From NCBI GenBank assembly GCA_001778235.1, contig MFGJ01000001.1, positions 165,605 through 229,604 of the forward strand: a stretch of DNA of 64,000 nucleotides. Direction: 5' to 3'. Source of the DNA: Candidatus Falkowbacteria bacterium RIFOXYC2_FULL_36_12 (GTDB lineage: Bacteria > Patescibacteriota > Patescibacteriia > UBA11705). The notes beneath the pieces were generated by a model, which was given only the letters and a program-made list of their open reading frames with translations, was not told where the DNA came from and did no database searches. Made by a program: the position numbers and the translations under genes. Shown here in pieces: positions 43,928 to 57,079 of this stretch; the stretch's first letter is position 1; each line of letters begins with the position of its first letter.

Positions 43928-45425
<1,498 letters not shown>

Positions 45426-47722: not shown

Positions 47723-48637
47723 AATAAGATTAAAGTTGTAAGTTGTAATGTGAAAGTTGTCTTTGCTTGTATTATAGGGGAGAATAAAGGAAATTTCAAT
47801 GAGGGGGTTTAATTTCTGGTTACAATTAATATTTGCGAATTGAAAATAAATATTTAGAAAGTTTATTACATTTGCTAGCGTAAGTTTTTTGAGAATAAGT
47901 GATTGATTTCGCTTTGCGATTTCTTTTGACGCCCTGCCTACCCTGCCTACCGGCAGGCAGGCGGCAGGCAGGCAAAAGAAACAGAAGCGCTGGGGTTTTC
48001 TAATTGAATGCCTTTAAATACCCTTTTGTGCGCTCATGACAGCAACGAAAACCCCAGACCTGCCTTCATCAAGATTACGGCAGGCAAGCCCCGATGTTAA
48101 TCATGTAAAAATAAAGTAAGTGGTTGATGTTGCTAAAGCAAGCCCTTTTTGACAGCAAAAAGGGCAAACCGCCTACACTAAAGTTTCGGCGGTCAAGAAA
48201 CTGCTGGGGGGATTCAATGCGAATTGCATGGCAAACAAGTTCTCTGTAGGAAAAGTTTAGAGTGAGAAGTGAGAGTTGATTGATTATACCCTGAAATCCA
48301 TCTTCGTTAAAACTTCGATGGACAAGTAAATTCAGGGTGACAAGTGAGAGTGTTGGTGGCACGCACATGACCACCCCAGACCTGCCTTCATCAAGATTAC
48401 GGCAGGCAAGCCCCCGTGATGTTCATGTTCGATGCTTTAAATATATAGCCTTGGTGGTGTTGTTCATGGCAAAACAAACCCCAAACCTGCCTTCATCAAG
48501 ATTACGGCAGGCAAGCCCCGAGGTTGGTCATGTTCGTGGGGTTGAATATTTAAAGTAAGTGATAGTATTAATTGTGTTTAAAACAGAAAAATCGCAGTAA
48601 TGCGATTTTTCTGATCTATTTGAAATTGATTGAAGTT
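47723..48637. repeat. Repeat island: long imperfect palindrome cctgcctaccctgcctaccggcaggcaggcggcaggcagg, three F1 copies, and an F2/F3 unit
   Basis: Direct reading. Sits where rimM would be expected in the rpsP operon. Confidence 0.75.
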
Positions 48638-50544: not shown

Positions 50545-50552
50545 ACTTTTCA

Positions 50553-50578
50553 AAAACGAGCCTGATGGCTCGTTTTTG
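50553..50578 (+). terminator. Rho-independent terminator aaacgagcc-tgat-ggctcgttttt
   Basis: Hairpin plus T-run. A similar hairpin lies at 56953-56985. Confidence 0.65.
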
Positions 50579-51290: not shown

Positions 51291-52424
51291 TTATTGTTTG
51301 CGAATTCGCTCTATTTCTTTAACATCCTTTACTTTTCGTCTCATCTTGTTTAATTCTTGTCGTTTTTGATTATTTTTTTCTTCAACTCCAAAAAGGCTAA
51401 TAGCGATAGCTAATATGTTATCAATTGATTTATCTTCCGATTCTACAATTTTTTTTCCTAATTTTTTTAGCCCTTCTGTCATATCTTCTCGTTTCTGAAA
51501 TTCGGGCTGGTTTTGCATAAGATCGAAAATTTCGTTCGCATTCATTTCTGGTCTGATTTGATTGGCGAAACCCTCAAAAATTTTTCGTCCGCGTTCAACA
51601 TTTGCCTTAAATTCATCTTCATAAACTTTTTCTATATCATCAATATCTTCTTCTGTGATTCTGCCTGTTTCAATTAATTTTTCTGCATCGGTAACATCAT
51701 AATTTCTACCTTGATGGAGCTTATAGTAAAGTACTTTTCCAGGATGTGAAATATTAATTTGTCTGCCTTGAAATTCTAGTGGTTGCGGTTGAACCCACTT
51801 TTCTGGAATAGGCGTGCGCGAAACACCTAAAGGTTTACCAGTCTCATCCCTTTGAATAATATGAACATCCACAAAATTTAATGCTTTATCTCGGCGAATT
51901 TTCCCATTTTCATCTATAGCCGCGATTAGCATGTGCTCTGTATCTAATTCGGCGAAATTCCTGAAACTTACTCGCCTCATTATTTTATTTTTGGTTTTAT
52001 CTTCTGTGCGAGATAAAAATAAGCCATACCCATTTTTAAGCAACTGCACCTCCAATGCTTCGAGTTCGTCTTTCTCTACCGAGATATCAACATCTTTATG
52101 TTCTCCTATGTATTTCTCAGGGTTTTCGCCAGCGCCATTCATTAAGGATATATTCAAAGCTCCATCAAGGTGCCAATTCAAATCAGACCCTTCAAATGCT
52201 TGGCCTAATTCTTCGATGCTTTGATTCATTTTTTTAACAATTTCAGGAGAAGGCCTTTTGCGGATGAAATTTTCATCAATTTTTCCAGTAAAATCTTCCC
52301 ATGGCGGTTGCTCCTGCTCGTAATATTCAGCCCGAATTTCAGAAGCACGCCTTTGTTCATCCGTCATCATGCTTTCGGCTTTGTTAATTTCCTCTTGTGT
52401 TGGATTGTATTTTTCTGGATTCAT
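51291..52424 (-). CDS. Putative nucleotidyltransferase of the ANT(2'')/Lnu-like family (tentative), with a long C-terminal helical region
   Basis: NWHLDGALNISLMNG...HKDVDISV resembles the W.LDGGWG.DAL.G...R.H.DID motif of aminoglycoside-2''/lincosamide nucleotidyltransferases. Confidence 0.4.
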   Translation of the reverse strand: MNPEKYNPTQEEINKAESMMTDEQRRASEIRAEYYEQEQPPWEDFTGKIDENFIRKRPSPEIVKKMNQSIEELGQAFEGSDLNWHLDGALNISLMNGAGENPEKYIGEHKDVDISVEKDELEALEVQLLKNGYGLFLSRTEDKTKNKIMRRVSFRNFAELDTEHMLIAAIDENGKIRRDKALNFVDVHIIQRDETGKPLGVSRTPIPEKWVQPQPLEFQGRQINISHPGKVLYYKLHQGRNYDVTDAEKLIETGRITEEDIDDIEKVYEDEFKANVERGRKIFEGFANQIRPEMNANEIFDLMQNQPEFQKREDMTEGLKKLGKKIVESEDKSIDNILAIAISLFGVEEKNNQKRQELNKMRRKVKDVKEIERIRKQ

Positions 52425-52569
52425 AAAAATAAAATTTGTCCAAGTAATTTTTCTGCGATAGCAGAAAAGAATTTAATTATTTCAGCTAACATCCGCGTGT
52501 ATGCGATGTCCGAGCGAAGTGAGGATATGGGTGCCAGCCGCATACACGCTGTTAGGCGACGTATCTTAA

Positions 52570-52761
52570 TTAAAAAAATACGCCAATTAACCCACCAATA
52601 ATTCCGGTTAGTATAATAATTTTCCAGCTTGGAAACCGTTTTTTTGTTAGCCGATATATTATTATTGTTGGAACTAAGAAAATAGCAGCACTAATGATGA
52701 ATACAAGAATGATGCCCAGTGCAATCCCCAGTTTAAATGTGTCACTAAATAAATAAATCAT
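52570..52761 (-). CDS. Small membrane protein (2 TM), hypothetical
   Basis: Hydrophobic ORF. Confidence 0.3.
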   Translation of the reverse strand: MIYLFSDTFKLGIALGIILVFIISAAIFLVPTIIIYRLTKKRFPSWKIIILTGIIGGLIGVFF

Positions 52762-52774
52762 ATTAAATTTAGAT

Positions 52775-53050
52775 ATGTCGTTGAATGGGCTGCGCCTAAT
52801 GCGAAGTTGCGGACGGGTAGCGGAGCTATCCGACAGGCAATTTCGTATAGGCGCTGTTGTGCGCTTGTCCGCCTAAGGCGGGATGCCATGCGAGCACACA
52901 GCGCCGGAGGCGCAGCCCATTGTGCAAAACAACGGGAGCGACACGCGGAGCGTGTGCGAGCGGTTTTGCACAATGTTTCGGCATCATCCGAAGTTGCGTA
53001 GCAATTTAGGTGGAGCGTAGCGGAACCAGATATGCCGTGTTGTGCGATGT
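52775..53050. repeat. GC-rich structured repeat, copy A (15-bp terminal inverted repeats aatgggctgcgcct/aggcgcagcccatt, plus a second palindrome tgtgcaaaac...gttttgcaca)
   Basis: Near-identical to 54336-54610 and 55150-55330. Very high GC relative to the surrounding sequence. Confidence 0.85.
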
Positions 53051-53074
53051 TCAAAAAATATTTTTCATTCCTTT

Positions 53075-53464
53075 TTATTTTGACAGGCTTTCATCTATAA
53101 ACAATTTTAACGCGTCAATATCTTTAGTATTTTGGTCGTAATGAAATGTATTAACACCAACAGATTGAGCGCTCTTTACAGCATCTAAATTATGCTCAAA
53201 ATACACAACATCTTTTACTTCAAGATTAAAATGCTTGAGCATAGTTTCAAAATATTTCGGATCTGTTTTTTCGGGGTCATGTTTAAGCGTAAAGACTTCG
53301 TAGGGCATCTTATTTAGGCCAAACATTTCCATCTCCTCATCATTAGCACCAGTCAAGATGATTTTCTTGTTTGGGTATTGCTCAAGCATTTTATACATTT
53401 CATTAAAGACACCCTCGCCCTTTATTACAAAAGCGTTAATTGCATCTACTAAAATTGTTTTCAT
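53075..53464 (-). CDS. Small HAD-like hydrolase (tentative)
   Basis: ILVDAINAF at the N-terminus and VVYFEHNLDAVKSAQSVG near the C-terminus are compatible with a short HAD-family fold. Confidence 0.35.
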   Translation of the reverse strand: MKTILVDAINAFVIKGEGVFNEMYKMLEQYPNKKIILTGANDEEMEMFGLNKMPYEVFTLKHDPEKTDPKYFETMLKHFNLEVKDVVYFEHNLDAVKSAQSVGVNTFHYDQNTKDIDALKLFIDESLSK

Positions 53465-53685
53465 AAGCGCCTGTCAAAATTATTAATAAAAGGAAAAATA
53501 TTTTTTGAATTTCGCACAACGTTAGTGATAAACGAAGTTCGTTTGACTGAAAGGAAAACGAATTTGGGAAAATGCCGAGCCGAGGCATTTTCCGGTTATC
53601 ACTTGTTGTACGACCCGAGGTCTGCCTTCCTTATTATTAATTAAGAAAAGGCAGGCCGAGAGCGCAGCGAGGCTTGATTTTTACT

Positions 53686-54303
53686 TTAAGAAATATTTTT
53701 TATAACTCCATAAATAGCTATCTTTTTTTTGTTTCTTTTTGCCCACCAAATATCGCCATATGACCAATGCCAGTATTCCTTTGGGTAATTAGACAAACCA
53801 GCTTTTTTCAGGGAGGCGAACATAGTTTCTCTATTTTGCTGAATGTATTTTGATAATTTAGGCTGAAATGATTTGGCGTTTTCCTGATATGTTAATTTTG
53901 AACTTTTCATCGGGATTTTTCTACCGTTTTTCCATAATCTTAAATCAACCGCCCCTCCTGTCATATGCCCAGAAGCGTTTTTACCGTCAGAAGGAGCAAC
54001 GTATTTCTCAACCTCTTTTATGATTTTGTCTTTAGTCCAGGAGGGGTGTTTTTTAGAAAAACGATCAATAAACCATTTTTTAATTTCTTCTTGAACATAT
54101 TGAGGCCGCCATGCATCATTAATTATGAATGTCATTCCATCTGGCAATTCTTTTTCAGCGCGCCAAATCATTTCAGCCACTGTTTTTCTTAGGTAGGCTG
54201 TTTTTTCTTTCTTCATTCGTCGCTTACCTAAATTGATAATTATATTTGGGCAAACTTTATTTATATTAACTAATGGTTCATTACATTCTTTGATATTTAT
54301 CAT
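53686..54303 (-). CDS. Peptidase M15 family D-Ala-D-Ala carboxypeptidase/dipeptidase (VanY/VanX-like)
   Basis: SGHMTGGAVDL (S.H...G.A.D) and EYWHWSYG (E.WHW) zinc-ligand motifs. Confidence 0.6.
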   Translation of the reverse strand: MINIKECNEPLVNINKVCPNIIINLGKRRMKKEKTAYLRKTVAEMIWRAEKELPDGMTFIINDAWRPQYVQEEIKKWFIDRFSKKHPSWTKDKIIKEVEKYVAPSDGKNASGHMTGGAVDLRLWKNGRKIPMKSSKLTYQENAKSFQPKLSKYIQQNRETMFASLKKAGLSNYPKEYWHWSYGDIWWAKRNKKKIAIYGVIKNIS

Positions 54304-54335
54304 AAAAAATATTTCTTAAAGTAAAATTTCGTACA

Positions 54336-54610
54336 ATGGGCTGCGCCTAATGCGAAGTTGCGGACGGGTAGCGGAGCTACCCGACGGGCAATGTCGCATA
54401 GGCGCTGTTGTGCGATGCCATAGCGAGCACACAGCGCCGGAGGCGCAGCCCATTGTGCAAAACAACGGGAGCGACACGCGGAGCGTGTGCGAGCGGTTTT
54501 GCACAACGTTGCCGATATCCGAAGTTTTCTGAAGCGAAGCGAAAGAAAATTTGGGTGAGCATTTGGCGGAGCCAAGCGCGAACCAGATATCGAGCTGTTA
54601 TGTGATGTAA
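54336..54610. repeat. GC-rich structured repeat, copy B
   Basis: Direct comparison with copies A and C. Confidence 0.85.
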
Positions 54611-54649
54611 TTTAATTAACGAGCGATAGCGAGTGTTGTTGGGGCAAAT

Positions 54650-55087
54650 TTATTTAATCTTGAATTCAGGAGTAGTTTCGTTTTTAAGTTCCTTTTTCCA
54701 GTTTGTTAGCTCAAAATATTGCTCAATGTCGCCAGCTTTATGTATGTGTTGTTCCGTTGGTTTTATTTCATCCAAATTTTCAATTACTAATTGGTTTTCA
54801 TCAAATTTCCTTGCCACTCCTTCTTCGACTTCCACTTCGTAAATGTAAACTTCTTTTTCAGGATTAAATAACTCAGGATTCTCAAACTCAATTGTATCGT
54901 TTTCATGATTAATACGTGTCACTCCATCGGGTCTTGCTGCCATAGCTAGCGCGTATTTATAATGCGGTGTTAAATAGATTCCGTCTTTTAATTCGTCTTC
55001 AGGGACTTCAACTCCTTCTCCTGCTTGCGCCTGCATCTTTTTAATTGTTTTAAGATTTCCATTTCTGGAGCCGTGATATAGTTTCAT
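54650..55087 (-). CDS. Hypothetical protein
   Basis: 145-aa ORF. No recognisable motif. Confidence 0.4.
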   Translation of the reverse strand: MKLYHGSRNGNLKTIKKMQAQAGEGVEVPEDELKDGIYLTPHYKYALAMAARPDGVTRINHENDTIEFENPELFNPEKEVYIYEVEVEEGVARKFDENQLVIENLDEIKPTEQHIHKAGDIEQYFELTNWKKELKNETTPEFKIK

Positions 55088-55149
55088 ACTAAAAGATTAA
55101 ATAAATTTGCCCCAACAACATTTTTGCAAGAGCAAAAATAATTAAATTA

Positions 55150-55330
55150 TTTCACATAATGGGCTGCGCCTAATGCGAAGTTGCGGACGGGTAGCGGAGC
55201 TACCCGACGGGCAATGTCGCATAGGCGCTGTTGTGCGATGCCATAGCGAGCACACAGCGCCGGAGGCGCAGCCCATTGTGCAAAACAACGGGAGCGACAC
55301 GCGGAGCGTGTGCGAGCGGTTTTGCACAAC
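55150..55330. repeat. GC-rich structured repeat, copy C (between the first cassette-like gene and the recombinase gene)
   Basis: Direct comparison. Confidence 0.85.
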
Positions 55331-55389
55331 TCCTTTTATGCGAAGTTAATTTATTTTATGGTATAATAAGTGCATAAAGGGAGTTTGAA

Positions 55390-56268
55390 TTGCTTAAAAT
55401 AGCAATTCATAAGTATATTATGATTATAGCAAATCAAAAAATAAAATCAAAACAACTAGATACTTTGATTAGTTTGAAAAATGAGCTTAAATTGAGGAAT
55501 TATTCTCCAAAAACATGTAAATCTTATATTGGGGTTAATTTGAGGTTTTTGGATTGGTTTGGAAAATCTCCGAGAGAAGTCAAAAATGAGGATATTCGGA
55601 GATATTTGGAGGATTTACGACATAGGGGAATTAGTGCTTCAACTCTTAGTGTTGATATTAATGCACTTAAATTTTATTATACAAAAGTATTAAAACGGAA
55701 GTTTTTTTCTGACATAAAACATCCCAAACAAAGACAAAGTTTGCCTGTAGTCTTATCAGTTTCTGAAGCAAAATTGTTGATAGACTCAACTAAAAATGAA
55801 AAATATAGGTTCGCTTTTTGCTTAATGTATGGTAGTGGACTTAGGTTGTCTGAAGTTTTAGATTTACGAGTTGCTGATATTGATTTTGATAGAAAAGTTA
55901 TTCATATCAAAGCGGGTAAAGGAAATAAGGATAGGATTACAATTTTGGCTGAAAAAATGATCCCTAACTTAAAATTATTTGTAAAAGATAGAGAGTCTGA
56001 TCAATTTGTTATCTTTGGTCTGGCTGGTCAAAAATTGACTGCAAGATCAGTGCAAAAAATGTTTCAAAAATCTTTATCTGAAGCACAAATTAGGAAACCA
56101 GCAACTTGCCATTCGCTTCGTCATTCATTTGCGACGCATCTACTTGAAAATGGTACTGATATTCGATATATTCAAGAGTTATTAGGTCATAAGAAGTTAG
56201 AAACAACACAGATTTATACTCATGTAACAAATTCTGTGTTGAAAAATATTGAAAGTCCTTATCAATAA
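55390..56268 (+). CDS. Tyrosine site-specific recombinase (XerC/XerD-like phage-integrase family)
   Basis: GLRLSEVLDLRVADID (Arg I), HSLRHSFATHLLENGTDIRYIQELLGHKKLETTQIYTHV (box II with catalytic Tyr). Confidence 0.8.
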   Translation: MLKIAIHKYIMIIANQKIKSKQLDTLISLKNELKLRNYSPKTCKSYIGVNLRFLDWFGKSPREVKNEDIRRYLEDLRHRGISASTLSVDINALKFYYTKVLKRKFFSDIKHPKQRQSLPVVLSVSEAKLLIDSTKNEKYRFAFCLMYGSGLRLSEVLDLRVADIDFDRKVIHIKAGKGNKDRITILAEKMIPNLKLFVKDRESDQFVIFGLAGQKLTARSVQKMFQKSLSEAQIRKPATCHSLRHSFATHLLENGTDIRYIQELLGHKKLETTQIYTHVTNSVLKNIESPYQ

Positions 56269-56952: not shown

Positions 56953-56985
56953 AAAAAAAACGAGCCAGGTGGCTCGTTTTGTGTT
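56953..56985 (+). terminator. Rho-independent terminator aaaacgagcc-aggt-ggctcgtttt
   Basis: Hairpin plus T-run. Confidence 0.65.
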
Positions 56986-57004: not shown

Positions 57005-57079
57005 TGGAGGCCACGATCGGATTTGAACCGATGAATGACGGTTTTGCAAACCGTTGCCTTACCACTTGGCTACGTGGCC
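57005..57079 (-). tRNA. tRNA-Cys (anticodon GCA)
   Basis: GGCCACG...ACGGT-TTGCAAA-ACCGT...ATCGGTTCAAATCCGAT-CGTGGCC-TCCA. Confidence 0.85.

Follow-up and report, generated by a model that had tools for sequence, protein, structure and literature searches.

Sedentary chromosomal integrons, described from Vibrio and from archaea (Ghaly et al. 2022, PMC9668308), place a recombinase gene divergently from a row of co-oriented cassettes, most of which hold a single open reading frame (ORF). The I2 helix of the integrase is held to be the innovation that enabled recombination at folded, single-stranded attC sites, which poses the paradox of whether the domain or the sites came first (PMC4792948, PMC7790495); Escudero et al. 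know of no Xer-family recombinase with an I2-like domain, and name CTXphi as the only comparable reaction. In the literature that we searched, there is no description of integrons or attC arrays in the candidate phyla radiation (CPR; Patescibacteria). Here we analyze 64,000 nt of DNA (the window) from an uncultured CPR bacterium of groundwater, Candidatus Falkowbacteria bacterium RIFOXYC2_FULL_36_12 (assembly GCA_001778235.1, contig MFGJ01000001.1, positions 165,605 to 229,604), which has a GC content of about 35%, carries a 16S rRNA gene, and contains three near-identical, GC-rich palindromic repeats beside a tyrosine recombinase gene. Each repeat is likely to be one copy of a gene-less cassette that was captured three times by an integron-like array on the chromosome. 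Taken alone, the repeat is a modest find; the system that it reveals is the point, apparently an undescribed variant of the integron idea that bears on how integrons arose.

Other described systems share parts of this design. In Xer/dif recombination and in CTXphi, whose folded single-stranded attP is recombined by XerCD (PMC4792948, PMC4246890), an Xer-type recombinase without extra domains is combined with a dif-like target, as at our locus, and the folded hairpin of CTXphi mimics a duplex site as the incoming partner, as we infer for the cassettes here. Unlike in these systems, a dedicated recombinase gene adjoins the site and the array in the window, and the cargo consists of many small tandem cassettes rather than phages. 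The pdif modules of Acinetobacter (PMC9947245) are small gene modules bounded by 28-bp XerC/D-like sites; these sites are complete and double-stranded, alternate in inverted orientation, and are found on plasmids. Finally, the ‘Cand’ subgroup of simple tyrosine recombinases is Xer-related, arm-less, and confined to candidate phyla, and its members are listed among putative chromosome-dimer resolution proteins, with no mention of cassette arrays (Smyshlyaev et al., bioRxiv 10.1101/542381). This subgroup is probably the family of the window recombinase.

The array is read on the minus strand, and all coordinates are positions in the window. Its seven units span 52490-55329; their ORFs all lie on the minus strand and point away from the recombinase gene (55390-56268, plus strand, probable true start ATG at 55420), which is the integron layout. 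Starting from the recombinase gene, the order is a dif-like insertion site, BA3, c2, BA2, c4, c5, BA1 and c7, where BA denotes the repeat unit and the others are gene cassettes, whose four small, unrelated minus-strand ORFs lie to the left of copy 3 and are separated by GC-rich hairpins. The same arrangement of recombinase gene, insertion site and co-oriented cassettes recurs in L003, L088 and L012 (L and a number denote a locus with a recombinase homologue in another genome).

The preliminary description of this DNA had reported three near-identical repeats, and alignment bears this out: within the unit proper, copy 2 (54337-54506) does not differ from copy 3 (55160-55329), and copy 1 differs from them by five substitutions, a 19-nt insertion and a 1-nt deletion. 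The repeat intervals are 52775-52956 (with the internal 19-nt insertion), 54326-54507 and 55149-55330. The earlier locations therefore stand, with the correction that the ends then set at 53050 and 54610 include the recombination site of the preceding gene cassette, which is only loosely similar between copies 1 and 2 and is absent from copy 3. The unit proper measures 170-188 bp. Its GC content, described as far above the background, is indeed 58-66% in 100-nt windows, compared with 25-40% in the surroundings and about 35% overall, and spurious GC-rich ORFs are called within the copies, as had been noticed; one public assembly also calls them as genes. Six occurrences of the 15-nt arm CAATGGGCTGCGCCT, each with no more than one mismatch, lie in the array; by chance, 0.66 would be expected in 64 kb at up to three mismatches. 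A perfect 15-bp inverted repeat had been claimed for the family; it is perfect in copy 2 only, and copies 1 and 3 deviate in the first base of the left arm, since this position is already part of the adjoining cassette. The inner palindrome and the second palindrome (52 nt in our hands) are present as first described. They are an attC-like folded site and a cassette's terminal inverted repeat, so that a recombination site, one of the alternatives raised at the outset, was the right one.

The boundaries of the units follow a common motif. Read on the minus strand, units close with a left-arm-like ACTTCGnATAw, 8-11 nt and (G/A)|TT, and the unit that follows opens with TTrnnnGAAAT. Each of the three repeat copies has this junction motif, ACTTC...(G/A)|TT, at either end, and the four single-gene cassettes are bounded by it too. 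A loose composite pattern for the junction matches seven times in the 64 kb, always on the minus strand and where a junction is predicted (once at the insertion site, 55319-55346, and at six cassette junctions), compared with 1.5 matches in shuffled sequences.

A second rule ties each unit's start to its own end. Every unit opens with 8-11 nt that are reverse-complementary to the inverted core at its own distal end, giving the pairs TTATGTG/CACATAA, TTGTACGA/TCGTACAA and TTGTGCGA/TCGCACAA and, for the repeat, TTGTGCAAAAC/GTTTTGCACAA. Across ten cassettes from four genomes, own pairs match at 56 of 80 positions, compared with a mean of 3.4 out of 8 for non-own pairs, and the own-core total was reached by none of 100,000 permutations. 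Seven of the ten cassettes are perfect over the five variable positions, with seven different sequences; the repeat alone obeys the rule at 11 of 11 positions, and an array from Peregrinibacteria follows it too. A cassette start that complements its own inverse core (R''), together with a G|TT crossover, is the classical signature of integron cassettes, and both are found here, the gene-less repeat using A|TT. The cassette-specific complement of the start lies 70-120 nt from the junction, and it therefore comes next to the crossover only through folding.

Each copy of the repeat combines two modules. Module B is a 54-nt hairpin in which the first 11 nt (TTGTGCAAAAC) pair with the distal core of the same unit (GTTTTGCACAA), with 32 nt of filler between them. 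The recombination site is formed by module A; on the window's plus strand, it folds as a three-way junction with an outer stem of 13-15 bp; hairpin 1 begins with ATGCGAAGT (on the other strand ACTTCGCAT), the recombinase left-arm motif in duplex form, and hairpin 2 begins with GTTGTGCGATG. BA3 (copy 3, 55160-55329, minus strand), the first cassette at the insertion site, has module B at 55276-55329 and module A at 55160-55278, and is bounded by the insertion-site junction GGAG|TTGTGC and by GCCCA|TTATGTG. In its identical counterpart BA2 (copy 2, 54337-54506, minus strand), module B occupies 54453-54506 and the outer-stem arms of module A lie at 54334-54348 and 54441-54455. BA1 (copy 1, 52786-52973, minus strand) is the most distal and most diverged, and its 19-nt insertion is a small hairpin itself, placed at the tip of hairpin 2. 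Folded as single strands and compared with shuffled sequences, copy 2 and its neighbour have z-scores of -7.9 and -8.9 on the two strands, and copy 3 has a z-score of -9.3.

The cassette sites resemble those of integrons: they are imperfect palindromes, and their predicted folding is more stable on the bottom strand. In 11 sites from five genomes, the strand opposite the ORFs (plus in the window) has the lower DNA folding energy in all 11, and it holds 32 G.T pairs compared with 7 on the other strand. The motif GCGNAGC occurs at hairpin tips 14 times on the strand opposite the ORFs and 3 times on the other strand in the window's array, and 6:0, 2:0, 1:0 and 1:0 times in relatives (10 versus 0 in total), whereas the counts in the rest of the window are 6 and 4. 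GNA triloops closed by C-G form unusually stable DNA mini-hairpins. Two of the BA1 substitutions are C-to-T changes that preserve G.T pairs on the plus strand only, which points weakly in the same direction. The palindromes contain AAC...GTT; their core, however, is GTTRYRY rather than GTTRRRY as in attC sites (RYYYAAC/GTTRRRY). Nine gene-cassette sites have in common a 2-3 nt bulge directly after AAC on the strand opposite the ORFs; unlike in integrons, the canonical extrahelical bases of attC are not conserved, and this bulge at the crossover takes their place. Judged by their predicted folds, the cassette sites look like folded single-strand substrates.

The attI-like insertion site (55319-55346, minus strand) has a dif-like 28-bp core in an 11-6-11 arrangement, which sets it apart from integrons, with its crossover at G|TT (55329|55330). 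Together with the first cassette it reads ACTTCGCATAA-AAGGAG-TTATGTGAAAT, the right arm being supplied by the cassette start TTGTGCAAAAC. The two arms are mutual inverted repeats at 9 of 11 positions, as in a 28-bp Xer/dif site. They match the arms of Escherichia coli dif (GGTGCGCATAA-TGTATA-TTATGTTAAAT) at 18 of 22 positions and are strikingly similar to the Acinetobacter pdif arms ATTTCGTATAA/TTATGTTAATT (reference sequences from PMC3025954 and PMC9947245). Unlike in pdif modules, all seven junctions here are in direct orientation on the same strand, with spacers of 8-11 nt and a hairpin partner each. Nor does the site lie at a GC-skew switch, as a chromosomal dif does: on either side of the locus the cumulative GC skew increases, and there is no change of sign anywhere in the 64 kb; the insertion site is therefore not the terminus dif. 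We also observed, within 55330-55390, an inverted second copy of the left arm and central region (GTGCATAAAGGGAGTT, 55370-55385) that faces the insertion site. The left arm and this copy enclose the recombinase promoter (TGgTATAAT, 55359-55367), and L001, L003 and L152 conserve the inverted repeat AACTCCyTTTATGC...GCATAAAAGGAGTT; the pair could be an autoregulatory or hairpin feature.

Related loci record exchange at this site. The junction ...TCGCATAAAAGGAG|TT is invariant upstream of the recombinase gene in eight of them, with divergence right after it, and dif-like junctions adjoin distant homologues in Peregrinibacteria, Gracilibacteria, other Patescibacteria and one metagenome-assembled genome (MAG) of Woesearchaeota. 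As in integron populations, the first cassette is polymorphic. Among two groups of contigs that each share an identical recombinase gene, P0004 has two first-cassette variants, changing exactly from G|TT, and P0012 has at least four, on a backbone that is 99.8-100% identical up to the crossover, with one contig stopping exactly at GTT. L006 and L152 have unlike backbones and a common first-cassette start over the 23 nt available. As read from these sequences, the change at G|TT in relatives shows cassette turnover, and the insertion site would be active in nature. A scan of metagenomes with a 16-mer of the insertion site gave, among the matches listed, mostly chance hits, the real ones being only L152 and L202. 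In contigs with recombinase homologues (L001, L002, L006, L007, L093, L095-L097 and many of L008-L087), the sequence very often breaks off 50-400 nt upstream of the gene, as would be expected if variable or repeated cassettes had interrupted assembly; in short-read assemblies of the window organism, the repeat breaks contigs on both sides of c2.

The adjoining gene encodes an Xer/IntI-like tyrosine recombinase with all catalytic residues conserved. Its best solved relative is VchIntIA (2A3V), in an alignment that splits, with residues 196-219 of the query opposite residues 179-245 of the chain. The IntI-specific insertion, about 43 residues in the IntI of Vibrio and Azonexus, is missing from the window protein, and the same gap is found in all CPR and DPANN members aligned with these two. 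The protein has no additional domain (the I2 helix around patch III) of the kind that integron integrases carry, and it aligns end to end with archaeal XerA. In NCBIfam it scores 228 bits with NF040815 (cutoff 220) and 227 bits, in two pieces, with TIGR02249 (cutoff 265), which by profile score puts it at the borderline between XerA and ‘integron integrase’. Its closest homologues are 64-69% identical, one of them named Candidatus Kuenenbacteria, and relatives of 280-290 aa number in the thousands in Patescibacteria; a protein-pattern scan of genome contigs yielded, among the matches listed, only distant relatives (best identity 49%). In two loci, toxin-antitoxin pairs (YafQ/ParE with RelB/DUF6364) lie beside the recombinase gene (L001 1053-1585, L089 9268-9800). 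Such pairs are common in chromosomal integrons. The system has the layout, the crossover and the turnover of an integron, but it lacks I2, the defining feature of the integrase.

An Xer-like protein without I2, beside a textbook 11-6-11 junction with inverted, dif-matching arms, might suggest that the array arose by ordinary double-stranded Xer/dif recombination, in the style of integrative mobile elements exploiting Xer (IMEX) or of dif modules. The hairpins would then be terminators or RNA stability elements, and the repeat a dif-flanked spacer module. The left-arm-like ACTTCGnATAw upstream of |TT at every junction would fit as well. However, the arms at cassette junctions are spaced by 8-11 nt and not by 6, and the distant complement of the start meets the crossover only when the DNA folds. 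The bias of folding toward one strand, the asymmetry of G.T pairs and the GNA triloops are unexpected both for double-stranded sites and for a sense-strand RNA. A scan for promoters and terminators found no enrichment of either, no terminator role for the repeat, and no promoter-like site of the repeat's own. The position of the locus away from a GC-skew switch also argues against this explanation, which we regard as unlikely.

The gene-less cassette reading has its own difficulties. Canonical integron integrases need, for recombination of folded sites, the very domain that this recombinase lacks (PMC4792948). Exact-pattern scans of genome contigs (by the inverted-repeat arms), metagenome contigs (by 31-mer) and viral contigs, and a blastn search of plasmids and phages, returned no match to the repeat, so that the further copies sought since the preliminary description did not appear in these collections. 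The array is identical in all assemblies of the window organism, and the window matches public groundwater assemblies without any difference (GCA_001780315.1 contig MFGP01000019.1; ENA ERZ28563808 scaffold_706), so that the repeat itself shows no polymorphism. The recombination site of the repeat is atypical: its three-way junction, which integron sites do not share, has a continuous stem without the bulge, and AAT/ATT rather than AAC/GTT at the crossover. Lastly, two of the three copies come after related sites (C1 and C2), and co-transfer with the adjoining cassette is possible. All of these weigh against the repeat as a mobile cassette in its own right.

The last two observations would be accounted for if the repeat formed the outer part of a large composite site, one that is part of either the gene cassette before it (ORF-C-B-A) or the platform; its copies would then stem from duplication or gene conversion and not from excision and capture of the repeat itself. 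Copies 1 and 2 directly follow C1 and C2, which share ATCCGAAGTT...GAACCAGATAT, copy 3 abuts the insertion site, and the repeat has A|TT in place of G|TT. Yet C1 and C2 are only loosely similar, while the repeat copies differ by at most five substitutions, the 19-nt insertion and the 1-nt deletion; sites and repeats therefore did not arise by a joint duplication. The site of cassette c4 is normal and no repeat follows it, and the repeat by itself satisfies the start/own-core rule at every one of its 11 positions. A similar gene-less unit also stands directly at the insertion site of L072, whose recombinase is 43% identical to that of the window: this first cassette is GC-rich and has the topology of the repeat and its two hairpin motifs in an otherwise different sequence. 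We consider a composite site quite improbable. The preliminary description was to be refuted if the copies lacked conserved structure elsewhere or proved to be fragments of a longer known element. They are parts of a longer organized element, the integron-like array, and their architecture does recur in another genome, L072.

A structured RNA, such as a leader, a small RNA or an insulator in the array transcript, had also been proposed. In its favour are the very stable folding (z about -9), the conservation of the architecture in L072 and a putative promoter, similar to the Pc of class 1 integrons, from which transcription would run through copy 3. On the other side, Rfam 15 gave no match in the array at the gathering threshold, and at E<=1 it gave only two chance-level eukaryotic matches in 52400-55400, both outside the repeats; the repeat contains no promoter-like site, its better-folding strand is antisense to the array genes, and its boundaries are recombination crossovers. 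The RNA proposal is thus not supported, and we judge it very unlikely. A family of miniature inverted-repeat transposable elements (MITEs), the other first proposal, is hardly credible and effectively refuted, for although the 15-bp terminal-looking inverted repeats, the small size and the several near-identical copies suggest it, the inverted repeat is internal and not at the unit ends, there is no target-site duplication beyond the TT/AA core, and the copies are co-oriented at recombinase crossover points in one 2.6-kb array, with nothing similar elsewhere in the 64 kb and none in the collections searched. CRISPR-like repeats, intron ends and insertion-sequence ends were rejected as readings of the repeats, and a generic hairpin scan for units like module B was too noisy for use.

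We return to the repeat as a gene-less cassette, a class that is also known in integrons. In the mechanism that we propose, the adjoining recombinase would bind two partners, the dif-like insertion site and a cassette site in its folded form, and would exchange strands at (G/A)|TT. A cassette would leave as a circle and re-enter at the insertion site; for the repeat, the predicted junction of the circle, or of a tandem, is ...GCATTAGGCGCAGCCCA|TTGTGCAAAACCGCTCG... We infer excision and re-insertion, the circular intermediate, the reacting strand and the role of the adjoining recombinase as catalyst from the arrangement of the sequences. As cassettes would accumulate at the insertion site, the newest would lie nearest to the recombinase gene, and three captures of the repeat, interleaved with gene cassettes, would leave three copies. 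The gradient of divergence, from the identical proximal BA2 and BA3 to the most diverged and most distal BA1, fits such serial capture. Because it contains no gene, the repeat is most likely a minimal selfish or neutral passenger of the system.

The gene cassettes each pair one ORF with one attC-like site, all on the minus strand. Cassette c2 (54507-55159) has a 145-aa ORF without assigned function (54650-55087) and a site at 54507-54607; c4 (53520-54336) has a VanX/M15-like dipeptidase ORF (53686-54303) and a site at 53520-53614 that is homologous to sites in L003; c5 (52974-53519) has a HAD-like ORF (53075-53464) and a site at 52974-53049; and c7 (52490-52785) has a 63-aa membrane ORF (52570-52761) and a site at 52490-52560 (GCCTAAC...GTTAGCT). 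A unit at 51291-52489 (minus strand), with a 377-aa ORF and the cassette-like start TTAGCTGAAAT, is a possible last cassette or the flank of the array; no clear distal recombination site was found in it. The cassette proteins have no homologues in the other loci compared, and the same cassette in two arrays is therefore not demonstrable for the window organism. A putative outward promoter, TTGATT-16-TGcTATAAT (55423-55450, minus strand), identified by consensus match only, lies in the 5' end of the recombinase gene and faces the cassettes, as in integrons, and it is conserved in relatives.

Each cassette ORF is flanked by its own inverted repeats of 21-31 nt with 90-100% identity (53039-53069/53490-53520; 53679-53703/54302-54326; 54598-54661/55093-55159). 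Such flanking inverted repeats, cassette-specific and 20-65 nt in length when the array is compared with integrons, extend the core pairing much further than canonical integron cassettes do. Each cassette gene thus sits in the ‘loop’ of a long palindrome, like the 32-nt filler in module B, and the inverted repeats may bear on how cassettes are made. Families of recombination sites are common to several genomes and yet joined to unrelated genes, with the forms AGCGTGTATGCGG..., AAGnGATAA..GGAAAATGC... and ..CGATATCTGG..ACTTCrGATAT (L003 7545-7591 and 8953-9010, L088 6246-6281, and intergenic in L012). GC-rich palindromes TTGTATCCGAAG...CTTCGGATACAA, flanked by AGAGGA/TCCTCT, occur near recombinase homologues in Gemmatimonadales and Blastocatellia MAGs (L037 2599-2665; L065 2286-2356), and may be related sites in other phyla.

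The remainder of the window provides the setting of the array. After the 16S rRNA gene (43931-45425) come five tRNAs; the window contains no 23S gene. The skew of G over C on the plus strand is very strong almost throughout (0.2-0.48 per kb), and flattens or reverses only at minus-strand genes, the rRNA and tRNA genes at 42-45 kb and the array at 51-55 kb. A second, unrelated repeat family has copies of about 92 nt at 48015-48106, 48337-48428 and 48442-48533, with a common 45-nt core hairpin (CCCCAGACCTGCCTTCATCAAGATTACGGCAGGCAAGCCCC); together with a nearby GC-rich hairpin (47920-47981), it occupies a non-coding gap of about 900 bp after a KH-domain gene in the rpsP operon. The gene after this gap, read by eye from the sequence, is presumably trmD. 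Near-identical, terminator-like palindromes of 25 nt (AAAAACGAGCCnGnTGGCTCGTTTT) at 50552-50576 and 56956-56980 bracket a 6.4-kb block that comprises the array, the recombinase gene and a TSP3-repeat gene and ends just before tRNA-Cys (57005-57079); they may be island boundaries or coincidental terminators. A further GC-rich stretch, at 39-40 kb, consists of RecQ-like coding sequence and is unrelated to the repeats.

We propose tentatively, with confidence somewhat short of even, that CPR bacteria and apparently some DPANN archaea carry out genuine cassette capture by means of an Xer-like recombinase that never acquired I2, a dif-like insertion site and folded single-stranded sites. Such a system would be a living intermediate between Xer/dif and integrons, with the repeat as its minimal, ‘empty’ cassette. 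Possibly, the repeat is a scaffold whose hairpin loop receives genes; if true, the long inverted repeats flanking every cassette ORF would be explained by gene insertion into that loop. For annotation, the array accounts for the GC-rich spurious ORFs and for the assembly breaks beside these recombinase genes. Only six IntI were found in 75 archaeal genomes carrying attC arrays (Ghaly et al., PMC9668308), and a recombinase of the present kind might explain why most of these arrays have no detectable IntI. If the window recombinase belongs to the ‘Cand’ group, Xer-related recombinases of CPR bacteria would be reassigned from presumed dimer resolvases to cassette integrases. A natural system that combines attC-like folded cassettes, a dif-like site and an I2-less recombinase would make the question of the origin of I2 and attC experimentally testable, and, if true, it would extend cassette-based gene capture to the huge CPR radiation.

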